A model generated the notes under the pieces. It was not told where the DNA came from and ran no database searches. It saw only the letters and a list, made by a program, of their open reading frames with translations. The translations under genes were made by a program, and so were the position numbers. From Thermoproteota archaeon (GTDB lineage Archaea; Asgardarchaeota; Jordiarchaeia; Jordiarchaeales; Freyrarchaeaceae), in assembly GCA_029258835.1 (NCBI GenBank), contig JAPDJY010000088.1, positions 1-33,072 of the forward strand: a DNA stretch of 33,072 bases, read 5' to 3'. Shown in pieces: positions 11,706 to 28,933 of the stretch; positions within the stretch are counted from its first letter, which is position 1; each line of letters opens with the position of its first letter.

Positions 11706-12746
11706 ATGGAGAAGTCTTCATTAAACACGAAGAGGAGGATGCTCGTTAAAAGTGAGGATGAGACGTCAAGGGAGTACGGGAAGTACCCCGATGAGAGGAG
11801 CGTTGAGGAACTTTTAGAGGGATCCTTTGTTAACATCGACAAACCGGCTGGGCCTACAAGCCACGAGGTCTCTTCTTGGGTGAGACGCATCCTTAACTGT
11901 AAGAAGACCGGGCATGCAGGCACACTAGAGCCCTTACTCACGTAAGGGCGGTGAAACCCTAAGGTTACCGGGGTTTTACCCGTAGCTATAGGATACGCCA
12001 CAAAGCTTATTCAAGCATTGCACCTTGCAAGTAAGGAATACGTGTGTGTAATGAGGATGCACGGGGACGTTGGCTTTGAACAGGTTAAAATGGTTTGCAA
12101 CGAGTTTACTGGCCCGGTCTATCAGAGACCTCCAGTTCGATCATCAGTCAAGAGACGGCTTAGGATTAGGAGAATACATAGCATAGAAGCTCTCGAAATG
12201 GACGGCCGAAACGTTTTGCTGAAGATACGCTGCGAGTCAGGAACTTACATTAGGAAGCTGTGCCATGACATAGGGGAAGTTTTGGGGTGCGGAGCACATA
12301 TGCGTGAGCTTAGAAGAATCGGGAGTGGACCATTCACGGAGGAAAATATTGTGACGTTGCATGATTTAAAGGATGCATATGTCTTCTGGATGGAAGAGGG
12401 GGATTTAACTATTAAGAAATTTTTATTGCCAGCCGAAATAGCCGTTCAACACCTACCTAAAATATTCGTTCGTGACTCGGCTGTTGACGCCATATGTCAT
12501 GGCGCTGACCTAGCAGTTCCTGGCGTGGTTAAATTGGAGGAGGGCATCGAGCCGGGGGGGATGGTGGCCATTCTTACCCTTAAAGGAGAGCTCGTCGCAT
12601 TGGGATCTGCTTTAATGTCGACGGAGCAAGTTATTAGAGAAAAGAAGGGGTTGGCCGTTAAGACCAAGAGAGTAATCATGGAGAAGGGGACGTACCCGCC
12701 TCTCTGGAAGAAAAAAGAGGATGCAAAGTCGGATTCTTCGCCTTAA
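11706..12746 (+). CDS. cbf5: H/ACA pseudouridine synthase Cbf5, two exons (11706-11928, 11956-12746); 337 aa after splicing
   Basis: [11 protein letters not shown] and GHAGTL^DPKVTGVLP restored by removing 27 nt; ESGTYIRKL and PUA domain downstream. Confidence 0.95.
11929..11955 (+). other. 27-nt BHB-type intron in the cbf5 catalytic Asp codon
   Basis: Central helix CACT/GGTG, bulges AG^A and AA^A, inner stem GCCCTTAC/GTAAGGGC. Splicing gives CTA GAC CCT (L-D-P). The intron contains an in-frame TAA. Confidence 0.93.
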
Positions 12747-12895: not shown

Positions 12896-13200
12896 GTGAA
12901 ATATCCTAAAATAAGGCGAACCTACTGTCCTAGGTGTAAGAGGCACACCGAGCATTCAGTGAGTGTTTACAAGAAAGGTAAGGATAGGGCTTTAGCGGAG
13001 GGCGCTAGAAGGTACGCGAGAAAGAAACGTGGCTACGGCAGCCAGCCCAATCTTCTCTACGCTGCGTAGAGGGGGGCAAACCGATCCAGAGAGTGTTTGC
13101 AAAAACTACGAAGAAAGTCAGTTTTAAGCTCAAATGTAAGGAGTGCGGCCATATTATTCATACTAAGGGTATCCGCCTTAGGAAGGTTGAAACTGTCTAA
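12896..13200 (+). CDS. rpl44e: 50S ribosomal protein L44e (eL42), two exons (12896-13050, 13080-13200); 91 aa; not in the ORF track
   Basis: [18 protein letters not shown]...GYGSQP^[13 protein letters not shown]...CKECG; GGAGG upstream of GTG; precedes S27e as expected. Confidence 0.95.
13051..13079 (+). other. 29-nt BHB-type intron in rpl44e
   Basis: Central helix GCCC/GGGC, bulges AA^T and AA^A, inner stem CTCTACG/CGTAGAG. Splicing gives CCC AAA CCG (P-K-P). The unspliced frame stops at TAG inside the intron. Confidence 0.9.
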
Positions 13201-20229: not shown

Positions 20230-20805
20230 TTAAATAATTTTCGAGCTTCCAGTGAGCCATTCCGCAAGCTTTCTAAGAGCTCTTGCCCTATGGGAAAGGG
20301 CGTTCTTTTCCTCCACTTCAAGCTCTCCGAAGGTCCTCCCGTCGCCTTCGTAGGGTATGAATATAGGGTCGAACCCGAACCCTTTCCCGCCTTTAGCCTC
20401 GTGCGCGATCACTCCGAGGACTTCCCCTCTAAACGTTACGATTCGGCTCTGGTTTACGGCTGCGACTACGGATTCGAACTTTGCCCTGCGGTTTTCAACG
20501 CCATCCATCAACTTCAGGATGCCTTCATTACCTATTTTGCTAAAAACATAGGACGAATATGGCCCCGGAAAGCCATTAAGAGCCTCTATGAACAAGCCGG
20601 CGTCCTCGACGAGGACGACGCCGTCTAAGTGGACCTCACGCATAACATGTTCCAGGCTAAACCTAGCTATCTCCTCCAAGCTTTCCGACTGTACCTCAAC
20701 CCGTTTAACAGTTAACTGTTCGACCGTAATACCGTACTTGGAGAGAACCCTTTTTGCTTCCTTCAACTTGTGAGGGTTTCCGGTGGCGAAAAAAACCTTT
20801 CTCAC
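20230..20805 (-). CDS. rdgB: XTP/dITP diphosphatase (RdgB/HAM1)
   Basis: [27 protein letters not shown] and SHR motifs. GTG overlaps the bud32 stop. Confidence 0.95.
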
Positions 20806-21426
20806 CGTTCCGAGTACCTCCCTCGCCTCTCGATCTCCCACATTTTCTCTATTACAGCGTCTGCCCCGCTGAACGAGCTCCGGTAGCCTTGAAGTATGAT
20901 GCCGAAGGCCTCTTCAAAAACGTCATAGTGGGTGCTTTCCAGCGCCCTCTTCATCAGGTGAAGGTCTACACCGCGGTCCTCAACGCTTCGGGAGAAGTCG
21001 CCCAGTCCGAAGTCTATGAAGAAGATTTTTCCACGGCTGAGTATCATATTAAGTTGTCAGGTCCCCATGTATTACTCCCATCCTATGCAGCCTCCCTATC
21101 GACTTTCCCACCTCGTAAAGTCGTTTACGCAGCTCCTCACCCGGTAACCTGCCACTTTTAATAAGCTCTTTCAAGGTTCCACCTTCAACGTAGTCCATTA
21201 CGATGGTTGCGTTATCTACGTCTACCAGGTAAACAGTTGGCGCCGGTACTCCAGCCCTCTTGGCGGCGTGGAGCAGACGAGCCTCACGCACCGTCCTCTG
21301 CCGCCTTAAAAGAAGGTCCAACTCTGTAACCCTATAATTTTTGGTGACTCTCACCTTGACGAGAACCTTCCTGCCGAAGAGGTCTTCTAGGAAAAGGTGA
21401 GCCTCCGCGCCCTTCCTGAAAAGCAA
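20802..21426 (-). CDS. bud32: KEOPS kinase Bud32, frameshifted at ~21051 in this sequence
   Basis: KGAEA, VKVR and HGDLTT in one frame; NMIL, IDFGL, VDLHL and RGRY in another. The junction ACT T AAT lacks 2 nt of the expected Ser codon. Confidence 0.88.
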
Positions 21427-22472
21427 TTATGACTCCTCCATCCAGGGGACGGTCACCTCGTCAAGCCTCCATCTAGGCTTAACCCGGCTTTCCTCCACTC
21501 TTATTATTCTCCCGCTGGCGTACTCCAGTATTCCTGTCCATGCAATCATTGCCCCATTGTCGCCTGCCAGGGAGGGGGGGACCACATGGAACTCTGCGTC
21601 GTGCTCCTTGGAAATGTATTCGATCATTTCCTGTAGACGCTTGTTCCTAGCCACGCCACCCGTTAGTAAGACCTCTCTTTTACCGGTGTGAGCCAGCGCC
21701 CTCTCCGTCACCTCTGCAAGCATGGAAAAGCATACTTCCTGAACGCTGTAACATAGATCCTCGATCCTGCAGTGTCCTATCTTTCCTATGGCAGCCGTGT
21801 ACAAACCCGAGTACGAGAGGTCCATGCCCTTGACAACATATGGAAGTTGAATAAACAACTTTCCTTTGCCTGCAAGCTCCTCTACCTTTGGCCCTCCAGG
21901 GTGTTTCAAACCGAGAGCCCTAGCAAACATGTCGAGCATGTTCCCCACGGCTATGTCTAATGTTTCGCCGAAAACCCTGTACCTTCCCTTCTCGTAGGCT
22001 GCGACCAGCGTATTCCCCCCGGAAACGTACAGAGTTAAAGGGTCTCTTACGTCCTCGGCGAGGCGGCCTATTTCTATGTGTGCCAGGCAGTGGTTTACGC
22101 CTACTAGGGGTACTTCAAGCAGTAGCGATAATGCCCTGGCAATGGTTGCAACGGTTCTTAAGCAAGGGCCTTTAGGGGGTTCTCTAGCCCCGGCCCCTGC
22201 GAGAAGGCAACAAGGTTGATGTCCTCCATGTTAACTCCTGCATCCTTTAGAGCTGATAGGATTACTTGCTTAGCGCTGTTCGAATGGTGCTGGGCGGCCT
22301 CCCTGGGATGTATCCCTCCTTCGGCCGGAACGTACTCATCCCTAACGTTGGCGAGCACTTCGCCTTCACCGTCCACGATCCCTACGCCTAGGGTGTGCGC
22401 TGTCCCTTCAATCCCGATGCATAGTATTCGGCGGCCACCCAGATTCCTCTTCACCAGCGAGGGGAGGGGCAT
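21427..22472 (-). CDS. kae1: t6A synthase Kae1/TsaD, two exons (22472-22186, 22171-21427); 343 aa after splicing
   Basis: GIEGTAH, GGIHP, SQGPGL^GPCLR, VNHCLAHIE, YVSGGNT and DNGAMIA motifs. The frame is restored by removing 14 nt. Confidence 0.95.
22172..22185 (-). other. 14-nt canonical BHB intron in kae1
   Basis: Outer helix CAGGGGCC/GGCCCTTG, central helix GGGG/CCCT, bulges CT^A and AA^A. Splicing gives GGG CTA GGC CCT (G-L-G-P). Confidence 0.9.
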
Positions 22473-22476
22473 TCCG

Positions 22477-22665
22477 TTACGCCTCTTTCTCCTCTGAGCC
22501 ACCTTCCTTCTTTTTCTCTCTCACATAGTCTGTGTAGCCGCACTTGCCACACGTGTAACGGCGCCAGTGCTCAGCCATGAAAACGCCGGGGCCGCACCTA
22601 GGGCAAAACCTTTTAACACGGACAAGCTTCCCATCAACAATCTTATAATATTTGCTAACGCTCAC
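22477..22665 (-). CDS. rps27ae: 30S ribosomal protein S27ae (eS31)
   Basis: [13 protein letters not shown]...CGKCGYT; GGAGG before GTG. Confidence 0.95.
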
Positions 22666-22709: not shown

Positions 22710-23012
22710 CTACGCTGCCTCCTCACTTTCCTTCACCTCATTTCTCTTAATAATGTATTCTGGCTCCACCTGATAAGCTATTTCCTTTGAATCGTAGATC
22801 ATCGCCGTCCCCTTCGACCGGCCTAAACCGTACTCCGTCACGATCTTCCTAACGTAGACGTTTTCTAGGGGGACGCTTAGAAGGGCGGCTATCTTCCTTC
22901 TCACTTCCATCCTGCTAGGCGTTCCTTCCCCCTGATGCAACACCATGAAGGCAACTTCTTCTCTCTGGAAGAACGGGTTTCTACGTTTAGAGACAACTTT
23001 CACTTCCATCAC
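22710..23012 (-). CDS. rps24e: 30S ribosomal protein S24e
   Basis: NPFFQREE, GTPSR, TEYG and EPEYIIKRN motifs. Confidence 0.95.
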   Translation of the reverse strand: MMEVKVVSKRRNPFFQREEVAFMVLHQGEGTPSRMEVRRKIAALLSVPLENVYVRKIVTEYGLGRSKGTAMIYDSKEIAYQVEPEYIIKRNEVKESEEAA

Positions 23013-24906: not shown

Positions 24907-26198
24907 TTCACAATTCCCCACCCAATGAGTCTCCATCTCCCCGAAACCATCCGGCTCACGGCAACCCTTTGCCCCTCCTCGGCGCAGACCGGCCGGCGCA
25001 GGTTGATCTCGACGACCCCGCCCCTAACCGAGGACACCACGCCTACAGTAACCGATGAGCCAACGTTCAGCATTAACGGCTCATTAACCTTTACATCTTC
25101 CACCTTAGAAAGCTCCACGCTGCCGACAACACGCTCCATTAAATGCAGCTCTAAACTTAAACCATCCCATACTGGGGGAAGGGTACCCGGCTTCCCGACC
25201 ACGCTCCCTATAAGTCCGTCAGCCTTTGTCAAGGAGGGGTCTAGCTTCGTTCCAACGCCAATCAACCCTCCGGGGACAGCTTCCTCGAGCTCCACGCCTC
25301 CACCAGCATGCAAGCTCACAACGTCAGTATAGATGGGCTCGTACCCTCCGCCAAGGCTAACACCAGGGCGAATCTCGATCTCGTCACCGACCCTAACCCT
25401 CCCCTGAACGATAGCTCCGCCAATAACGCCCCCAACCAAGTCCTCAGGCCTCGTACCAGGCTTATTAACGTCGAAAGACCTAGCCACGTACATCCTTAAG
25501 GGCTTACTAAGGTCTCTAGTGGGGGTGGGGATCACCTCCTCGATGCTTTGAACCAAAACGTCAAGGTTCACACCGAAGACGGCTGACACGGGGATGACCG
25601 GGGCGCCCTCGGCGAATGTCCCGCTAATAAACTCCCTGATCTGCCTGTAATGTTCGATTGCCGCCTCCCTAGAGACAAGCTCGATCTTGTTCTGCACGAC
25701 GACGATGTTCCTAACCCCGGTGATTTCCAGCGCGGCGAAGTGCTCCCTCGTCTGAGGCTGAGGGCAAGGCTCGTTCGCCGCGATAACCAAGACGGCGCCA
25801 TCCATCAGGGCGGCGCCACTAATCATGGTAGCCATGAGACGCTCGTGCCCTGGGCTGTCCACGAAGCTAACCTTCCTCAGGAAGACGGCGTCCTCGCCGC
25901 AATGCGGGCACTTGTACCCTCCAGCCATCGCCAACGTGAAGTAGCACTGAGGGGGAGGGCAGGAGGGACACTTCAAAACAACAGCGTCGGCGTAACCCAA
26001 CTTGATGGTGATGCCGCGCCGCTTCTCCTCACTATGACGGTCAGCCCAGACCCCTGTAAGCGCGTGCACAAGGGTGGTTTTCGGCGCCCCCCATCAGCAT
26101 GGATGGGCATTGCCGTGGTCGACGTGTCCTGCGGTGCCTATGTTTACGACGCTTTGCGACTTTGCAGCATCCTCAAATGCGCCAGCATTCCCCGTCAA
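24903..26198 (-). CDS. eif2g: Translation initiation factor 2 gamma subunit, two exons (26198-26110, 26079-24903); 421 aa after splicing
   Basis: [12 protein letters not shown]^[30 protein letters not shown] and WRLIGWG motifs; GGAGGT before TTG. Confidence 0.96.
26080..26109 (-). other. 30-nt BHB-type intron in the aIF2gamma P-loop Lys codon
   Basis: Central helix CGGC/GCCG, bulges AA^T and AA^A, inner stem GCCC..CCAT/ATGG..GGGC. Splicing gives GGC AAA ACC (G-K-T). In-frame TGA inside the intron. Confidence 0.92.
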
Positions 26199-27591: not shown

Positions 27592-28933
27592 CTACGACCT
27601 CGCCTTAACCTCCCTAACCACTCCGACGGCAACCGTGTAATCGCTGTCACGCACCGCGAAGCGGCCAAGCTGAGGAATCTCCTTATAGGGCTCAATCACC
27701 ATCGGCCTCGTCGGCTCAAACTCCACCAGCGCCGCGTCACCACGCTTAATATAGTCCGGGTTCTCCTCTATCACCTGCCCCGTCCGCCTATCCAGCTTAG
27801 CCAGAAGCTTCGAAAACCTGCACGCCACCTGAGCCGTGTGAGCGTGAATCACCGGAGTATAGCCCGCCGCGATCGCCGTCGGATGCTGAATAACAATTAT
27901 CTGACCCACAAATCTCTCAGCCACAGTAGGCGGATTAGCCGGGTGGCCAGCCACATCGCCACGCCTAATATCCTTCTTAGAAACACCACGCACGTTAAAG
28001 CCAATGTTATCCCCCGGAACAGCCTCGTCAATCCGCTCATGATGCATCTCTATAGACTTAACCTCACCCTTAACGTTGGGCGGCTGGAAAACAACGGTAT
28101 CACCAGTCTTCAAGACACCAGTCTCAACCCTGCCAACAGGAACAGTCCCCACCCCAGTAATACTGTAAACATCCTGAACCGGAATCCTAAGCGGCTTATC
28201 AACCGGCTTAGGCGGCACCTTCAACATGTCCAAAGCCTCAATCAAAGTCGGCCCATCATACCAAGGCATATTACCGCTCTTCTCAAGCAAGTTATCACCG
28301 GTCCACGCAGAAACAGGAACAAACGGCACCTCGTCAACCTTGTAGCCAACCTGCTTAAGCAACGTCTCCACTTCCTTCCTGATCTCCTCATACCTCTCCT
28401 TACTCCAGTTCACACTCGCATCATCCATCTTATTAACAGCGACAATCATCTGACCAACACCCAGCGTAAACGCAAGATACGCATGCTCCCTCGTCTGACC
28501 ACCAGGACCAATCCCCGCCTCAAACTCACCCTTCCTAGCAGACACCACCAGCACCGCAGCATCAGCCTGCGACGTCCCAGTAATCATATTCTTAATAAAG
28601 TCCTTATGACCTGGAGCATCAATGATAGTGAAGTAATACTTATCTGTCTCAAACTTCCAGAATGAGATGTCGATGGTTAGACCGCGTTCTCTCTCCTCTT
28701 TGAGTTTATCCATAACCCAAGCGAACTTGAAGCTACCCTTTCCAAGCTTTTCTGCTTCCTCTTCATATTGCTTGATTGTCCGCTCATCAATCGCCTTAGT
28801 AAGGTAAAGCAAATGACCCATAAGAGTCGACTTCGGCATTCCCCGGGAAGACAGGTTACACCGCCCGGGGAATATTGCCGTGATCCACGTGCCCTATAAC
28901 CACCAAGTTCAAATGCGGCTTAGAAGCACTCAT
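27592..28933 (-). CDS. tuf: Elongation factor 1-alpha, two exons (28933-28875, 28831-27592); 432 aa after splicing
   Basis: [19 protein letters not shown]^[22 protein letters not shown] and LGRFAVRD motifs. Confidence 0.97.
28832..28874 (-). other. 43-nt BHB-type intron in the EF-1alpha P-loop Lys codon
   Basis: Central helix CGGC/GCCG, bulges AA^T and AA^G, perfect 10-bp inner stem ATTCCCCGGG/CCCGGGGAAT. Splicing gives GGC AAG TCG (G-K-S). In-frame TAA inside the intron. Confidence 0.93.

Follow-up and report, generated by a model that had tools for sequence, protein, structure and literature searches.

A probable 14-nt tRNA-type intron in the kae1 mRNA of an Asgard archaeon and inserts at the same codon in its relatives

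Bulge-helix-bulge (BHB) introns of the tRNA type are reportedly carried by the cbf5 gene of Crenarchaeota, a finding attributed to Watanabe in 2002 and Yoshinari in 2006. For the cbf5 pre-mRNA they were described in Aeropyrum, Sulfolobales and Desulfurococcales (PMC2738675, Yokobori 2009). In the searchable literature cbf5 is the only archaeal coding sequence described with a tRNA-type intron, and no report naming kae1 or Asgard protein genes was found there. Archaeal pre-tRNA introns show hBHBh' motifs or relaxed HBh', hBH or BHL motifs, as far as Marck and Grosjean (2003) are quoted in PMC5829648, and their sizes range from 11 to 175 nucleotides (nt) (PMC2738675). In Freyarchaeia 92-95% of the tRNA genes contain introns, often at non-canonical positions (PMC11291895). 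Putative 12-bp inserts in protein genes of an archaeal virus are mentioned in PMC2738675 with a citation of Peng et al. Here, a window of 33,072 nt (contig JAPDJY010000088.1 of assembly GCA_029258835.1, Asgard archaea) was analysed, in which 14 nt at positions 22172-22185 interrupt the gene kae1. These 14 nt are very probably an archaeal tRNA-type intron in the kae1 mRNA, which would be removed by EndA and RtcB.

The putative kae1 intron resembles the crenarchaeal cbf5 intron as a short tRNA-type intron within coding sequence with lineage-specific presence and absence. The cbf5 introns often show a relaxed cleavage motif and occur in hosts with hetero-oligomeric EndA, and the same applies to the kae1 case. 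The kae1 intron differs in its host gene and in the phylum, Asgard. For cbf5 there is experimental proof of splicing; for kae1 we infer cleavage and ligation from how the site is built, from its conservation and covariation in relatives, from the retention of the 14 nt in DNA of other studies and from the presence of EndA and RtcB genes. With 13-14 nt in the window and its close relatives the kae1 intron is much smaller; two cbf5 introns of Staphylothermus comprise 36 bp (PMC2738675). This size is near, not below, the reported lower bound of 11 nt for archaeal tRNA introns. The 4-bp helix, the 3-nt bulges and the predicted cut after the second base are shared with pre-tRNA introns. The exons contribute the whole outer helix and half of the central one, which is also the normal architecture, as in the anticodon arm of a tRNA, and nothing special. 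Unlike in pre-tRNA, the substrate is an mRNA, and its helices are formed by codons, constrained by the protein and kept via synonymous sites. The viral 12-bp inserts are comparable as very small inserts in archaeal coding genes that were proposed as introns; they are viral, and their splicing was not shown as far as they are cited.

The window is contig 27 of a metagenome-assembled genome (MAG) of 2.72 Mb in 91 contigs. The coding strand of kae1 is the minus strand, and the 14 nt at 22172-22185 read TTAGGGGGTTCTCT on the plus strand and AGAGAACCCCCTAA on the minus strand. Exon 1 (22186..22502, minus strand) is open from a GTG at 22502 and ends with ...AFSQGPG and the bases CU of a split Leu codon; the true start is uncertain, with an ATG at 22472 as alternative. 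Without splicing, its frame continues from ...LVAFSQGPG into ENPLKALA and a stop. Exon 2 (21427..22171, minus strand) supplies the A of the split Leu codon, followed by GPCLRTV...PWMEES and the stop. Its peptide GPCLRTVATIARA...PWMEES lies in a different frame, from 22170 down to 21427, and contains the NHCLAH metal-site motif. The deletion of exactly 22172-22185, the 14-nt intron AGAGAACCCCCUAA of the minus strand as delimited by the sequence and by comparison with relatives, yields a single kae1 frame of 353 codons. The NCBIfam profile arch_KAE1 (TIGR03722), which represents the KEOPS t6A synthase Kae1, is collinear over the junction. Exon 1 covers positions 1-78 of the profile (E 2e-29, 102.6 bits) and exon 2 positions 80-323 (E 4e-117, 390.9 bits), the latter exceeding the cut-off of 375 bits by itself. 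The missing position 79 corresponds to the Leu codon, which is divided as CU|A. A second kae1 was searched for in this genome and none was found. With no other copy available, production of the Kae1 protein has to rely on splicing.

In public gene calls the two parts figure as individual proteins, of 82-114 aa and 223-253 aa, as would be expected if they were translated separately and assembled into Kae1 as two polypeptides. Such a split gene is hardly credible. The frame of exon 2 is without ATG, GTG or TTG before 21948, over its first 74 codons with NHCLAH among them; hence exon 2 is not translatable alone. Furthermore, the break interrupts a conserved loop, and both sides contribute bases to the split Leu codon. 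The annotated kae1 products comprise 223-253 aa for the relatives and 167 aa for the gene of the window, and one NCBI entry is named TsaD. Protein databases contain no full-length Kae1 from this clade. Relatives with at least 74% identity are all truncated calls (P0002-P0010, P0036 and others), and the full-length proteins, with at most 73% identity, belong to other lineages. It was also observed that gene callers overlook exon 1 and the intron of kae1 in these lineages.

Independent contigs from two other studies, from strains with about 99% identity, span the site without any indel. Thus, the 14 nt are real in the DNA, as a check against reads lacking them would demand. The sequencing runs with DNA matching the window are labelled as hydrothermal-vent and marine-sediment metagenomes. 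A pseudogene, or an assembly error that produced the 14 nt, would be conceivable in a MAG of so many contigs, and the adjoining bud32 does have a 2-nt deletion private to this assembly. For kae1, this explanation is most improbable. Besides the contigs of the two studies, an insert at the same codon is found in 17 genomes and two metagenome loci, the exon protein is strongly conserved within the family (81-84% identity), and compensatory changes occur at synonymous sites of the exons. The gene is also the sole copy of a protein described as universal, which was detected in 154 of 161 sampled Asgard genomes.

The class of the window (Jordarchaeia in GTDB, equivalent to Freyarchaeia, Asgard) comprises 11 genomes in two families. 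All ten genomes bearing kae1 have an interruption at one and the same codon (GPGL|GPC); the remaining genome, 87% complete, yielded no kae1. The insert in the genome of the window has 14 nt. In the sister genus three genomes share this length and a fourth has 13 nt, and the five genomes of the sister family (f2) have 28-29 nt. Further carriers were identified by screening the 161 Asgard genomes for open-frame length with subsequent inspection of the DNA. Inserts at the same kae1 site were detected in family f3 (four Odin-like genomes of 1.3-1.4 Mb, 26-32 nt), in family f20 (three genomes, 25 nt) and in the metagenome loci L147 (28 nt) and L148 (21 nt), which completes the carriers counted above. 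In the remaining sampled Asgard families, including Atabeyarchaeia, the site is uninterrupted, and none of 80 further kae1 loci from Bathyarchaeia, Asgard and other archaea is interrupted there. Taken together, over 100 archaeal kae1 genes outside the carriers lack an insert. Thus the 14-nt insert at 22172-22185, as noticed in the sequence-only reading, is confirmed by the frame obtained on excision and by the relatives, and its interpretation as a tRNA-type intron is supported. In a Kae1 tree the carriers form two clades, f1+f2 (support 98/94) and f3+f20 (support 85/92), on an unresolved backbone. The tree is compatible with a single origin of the intron and also with repeated gain.

Several further candidates were rejected. 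The short frame of G154 (family f7, locus L123, G154:C10:75378-76700) results from a 1-nt frameshift and not from an intron. This frameshift lies a few codons before the motif (FAR-GPGLGPCL) and is probably a sequencing error, because three genus mates are intact. P0070 (L146; GCA_054474275.1, JBMYAN010000008.1) is called with 242 aa, yet it is uninterrupted at GPGL|GPC. At this locus about 300 nt (403-701) remain uncalled upstream, after the S27 gene, and may hold a different interruption in the N-terminal part. Two TAG codons flagged as stops inside kae1 of G007 and G008 were considered as recoding. One coincides with the natural stop that closes the match, the other is due to a scaffold gap with duplication in G008, and recoding was rejected for both. 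In exon 2 of the latter (L008, G008:C185) a run of N with duplicated flanks was observed, a scaffolding artefact which accounts for the split match and the apparent internal TAG.

One common excision rule, with an outer helix of 8 bp, a central helix of 4 bp and cleavage behind the second base of each 3-nt bulge, restores AFSQGPGLGPCLR. The product was read in all carriers with readable flanks; the upstream flank of G004 lies off the contig and its product was not read. L147 and L148 follow the same rule, judged by eye. In the outer helix, six of the eight pairs follow from the codons for Q-G-P and G-P-C, which are mutual reverse complements, and the remaining two involve wobble positions only. 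The pair between the two Gly wobble positions is formed in 16 of 17 carriers versus 51% of 78 intronless genes, the pair of the Gln and Pro wobble positions in 15 of 17 versus 27%. The exon strand GGGG of the central helix is present in all ten carriers of the class and in 5 of the 78 intronless genes (6%). Among the 17 genomes, outer pair 6 (Gly:Gly) occurs in six standard pair types (G-C, G.U, U-A, C-G, U.G and A-U) with one mismatch. The central pairs 1 and 4 alternate between G-C, G.U/U.G and C-G in step with the intron strand. In f3 the exon strand is GGGU and in f20 CGGC or CGGU, with GCUU and GCUG as matching intron strands. This covariation is reported without a P value, as related genomes are not independent. 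Such a diversity of standard pair types at synonymous sites would be expected of an RNA helix that is maintained. Constraint at the synonymous sites of the flanking codons in relatives, named as a check by the sequence-only reading, is therefore present in the comparison of carriers with the 78 intronless genes.

The comparison of the inserts also bears on translational recoding, by which the ribosome would pass the insert by a -1 frameshift within the 14 nt or by bypass, with no RNA splicing. A length of 14 nt equals a -1 shift, and in the window the zero frame is open across the insert up to a UAA, eight codons past the Leu codon. Recoding is nevertheless very unlikely. There is no slippery heptamer, and the take-off codon CUA differs from the would-be landing triplet AAA; among the carriers, no conserved slippery site or matched take-off and landing codons are present. 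The inserts of f3, L148 and L117 contain in-frame stops, and some lengths are multiples of three (21 and 30 nt). Hence, frameshifting is not a solution shared by the carriers. Read-through would insert 4-5 residues into the invariant loop GPGLGPC, and the feature that is conserved and co-varies is the BHB geometry.

For splicing of the kae1 mRNA the following course is proposed. In the pre-mRNA the codons for Gln-Gly-Pro (CAGGGGCC, 22192..22199, minus strand) would pair with those for Gly-Pro-Cys (GGCCCUUG, 22163..22170, minus strand) in an 8-bp helix. The following four exon bases GGGG (22188..22191, minus strand; third base of the Pro codon and the Gly codon) would pair with CCCU of the intron (22174..22177, minus strand). 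This would leave the 3-nt bulge AA|A (22171..22173, minus strand) on the 3' side and CU|A (22185..22187, minus strand) at the edge of a 10-nt loop on the 5' side. According to the common rule, a two-subunit EndA would cleave both bulge positions behind their second base, at 22186/22185 and 22172/22171. Ligation of the exons by RtcB would then complete the Leu codon as CU-A and with it the conserved loop GPGLGPC. The cut pairs CU|A..AA|A, CUA|G..AAA|G and CUAG|A..AAAG|G lead to an identical product; the first alone matches the BHB geometry.

The 8-bp exon helix CAGGGGCC/GGCCCUUG noticed in the sequence-only reading is present (22199-22192 with 22170-22163) and forms part of the minimum free energy (MFE) fold. 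It also holds that the BHB is built largely from coding sequence. The exons contribute both outer strands, the central 5' strand GGGG (codons CCG GGG) and three of the six bulge bases. What the intron adds is no more than 1 + 7 + 4 + 2 nt, namely one nucleotide of the 5' bulge, the loop GAGAACC, the strand CCCU and the AA of the 3' bulge. On the side of the 3' splice site the 4-bp central helix, the 3-nt bulge and the flanking helix are all present.

Several results weigh against this reading of the 14 nt as a spliced intron. The intron has five consecutive C, so three registers of the central helix are possible. In the MFE fold the outer helix is extended by one additional G-C pair, a 4-bp GGGG/CCCC helix is stacked directly on it, and the 3' side holds a single-stranded stretch. 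The canonical register GGGG/CCCU with the 3-nt AAA bulge needs a G.U pair and lies 2.3 kcal/mol above the MFE register at 37 C; at 60-80 C the difference is about 1 kcal/mol. In the window the loop GAGAACC forms at most 1 bp, so that an inner helix h' and with it a strict hBHBh' motif is missing, and the 5' cut site at the edge of the 10-nt loop corresponds to a relaxed bulge-helix-loop (terms as quoted in PMC5829648). With no inner helix and a canonical register that deviates from the MFE fold, cleavage would thus rely on an enzyme tolerating relaxed motifs. The hairpin is also not exceptionally stable, with z = -1.8 and 9 of 200 shuffles equally stable. Fold stability was rejected as standalone evidence, as this value is within chance; hence the main evidential weight lies on the comparison with relatives. 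In this comparison the outer helix contains a mismatch in two carriers, G003 and G004. Small parts of the region are represented in two metatranscriptome runs. Their contigs cover 22240-22442 (kae1 exon 1, from one sediment metatranscriptome), 20761-21003, 20333-20489 and 22715-22895, and the junction lies outside all of them, so that they speak neither for nor against splicing. A search of metagenome contigs with a degenerate pattern of the spliced junction detected no member of the clade; the one match was an unrelated intronless kae1 with at most 59% identity. The description as a textbook BHB is appropriate for the sister family, whose forms of 28-29 nt fold as strict hBHBh' with an inner hairpin of 7-9 bp, but not for the window itself.

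The genome encodes the enzymes that the proposed splicing would need. Two EndA homologues (PF01974) were identified, at L113:1210-1782 and L114:862-1788. The first, with 190 aa, has its best match in PDB chain 3p1z_B (E 4e-46), the second in 5x89_A and 1a79_A. RtcB is encoded by one gene (E 2e-182). Asgard archaea possess an (alpha-beta)2 EndA of broad specificity (PMC5829648). An enzyme of this type would fit the relaxed motif in the window.

The size of 13-14 nt looks derived and most likely reflects the disappearance of an inner hairpin, which is still found in the other carriers. The inner helix comprises about 6-9 bp across f2, f3 and f20, 3 bp in L148 and 2 bp (GC-GAA-GC) in the sister genus g2, whose mini-hairpin is decayed to GAGAACC in the window. 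Because all carriers outside the family have inserts of 21-32 nt with an inner hairpin, the short form is more simply explained as a shrunken derivative. In the sequence-only reading, a pre-existing exon hairpin was regarded as a landing site for a very small intron. One part of this idea is plausible, as the hairpin does pre-exist. Six of its pairs are codon-dictated, intronless genes form on average 5.8 of the eight outer pairs (n=78), and 25 of the 78 have at least seven; the site may thus be predisposed. The other part, the arrival of an intron that was already very small, is less simple than reduction. A stronger version, in which the Q-G-P...G-P-C codons are a built-in exon helix and kae1 is a hot spot where BHB introns were gained independently in Freyarchaeia/Jordarchaeia and in the Odin-like clade, is rather doubtful.

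The kae1 insert is not the only one in the window. A 27-nt insert at 11929-11955 (plus strand) splits the GTLDP motif of cbf5, and its excision yields the full Cbf5. In rpl44e, excision of 29 nt at 13051-13079 (plus strand) yields an eL42 of 91 aa. The genes of aIF2-gamma and EF-1alpha contain inserts at about 26080-26109 and about 28832-28874 (minus strand), both right after GHVDHG-AA in a Lys codon. Thus, with similar inserts in these four genes of the same 33-kb window, dependence on splicing is a general property of the genome. The claim that splicing of kae1 gates the t6A37 modification of tRNA was not borne out; nothing indicates regulation. The intron is probably a tolerated passenger and not a regulator, one of several in protein genes of this lineage.

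Directly downstream of kae1 lies bud32 (20802..21426, minus strand), which encodes the KEOPS partner and is not part of the intron. Its frame is broken at 21050/21051 within the catalytic loop (HGDLTT / NMILSRG). In the DNA contigs of the two other studies two more bases (AG, plus strand) are present, which restore HGDLTTSNMIL. Because these contigs have both bases, the break is a 2-nt deletion private to this assembly, either an error or a strain lesion, and not an intron.

In general, gene callers under-report the genes of intron-rich Asgard genomes, and inferences on completeness or metabolism may be affected. If kae1 were indeed a hot spot, hairpins already present in coding sequence would steer the gain of introns in Asgard protein genes, and 13-14 nt would be the practical lower size limit for mRNA splicing by EndA and RtcB. 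Asgard archaea are the closest known relatives of eukaryotes. With strong comparative support, an essential, single-copy tRNA-modification gene of this group, kae1, would be the second host gene for a tRNA-type intron in an mRNA. The size series from 13 to 32 nt at one site shows to what extent an intron may shrink when the helices are encoded by the exons.
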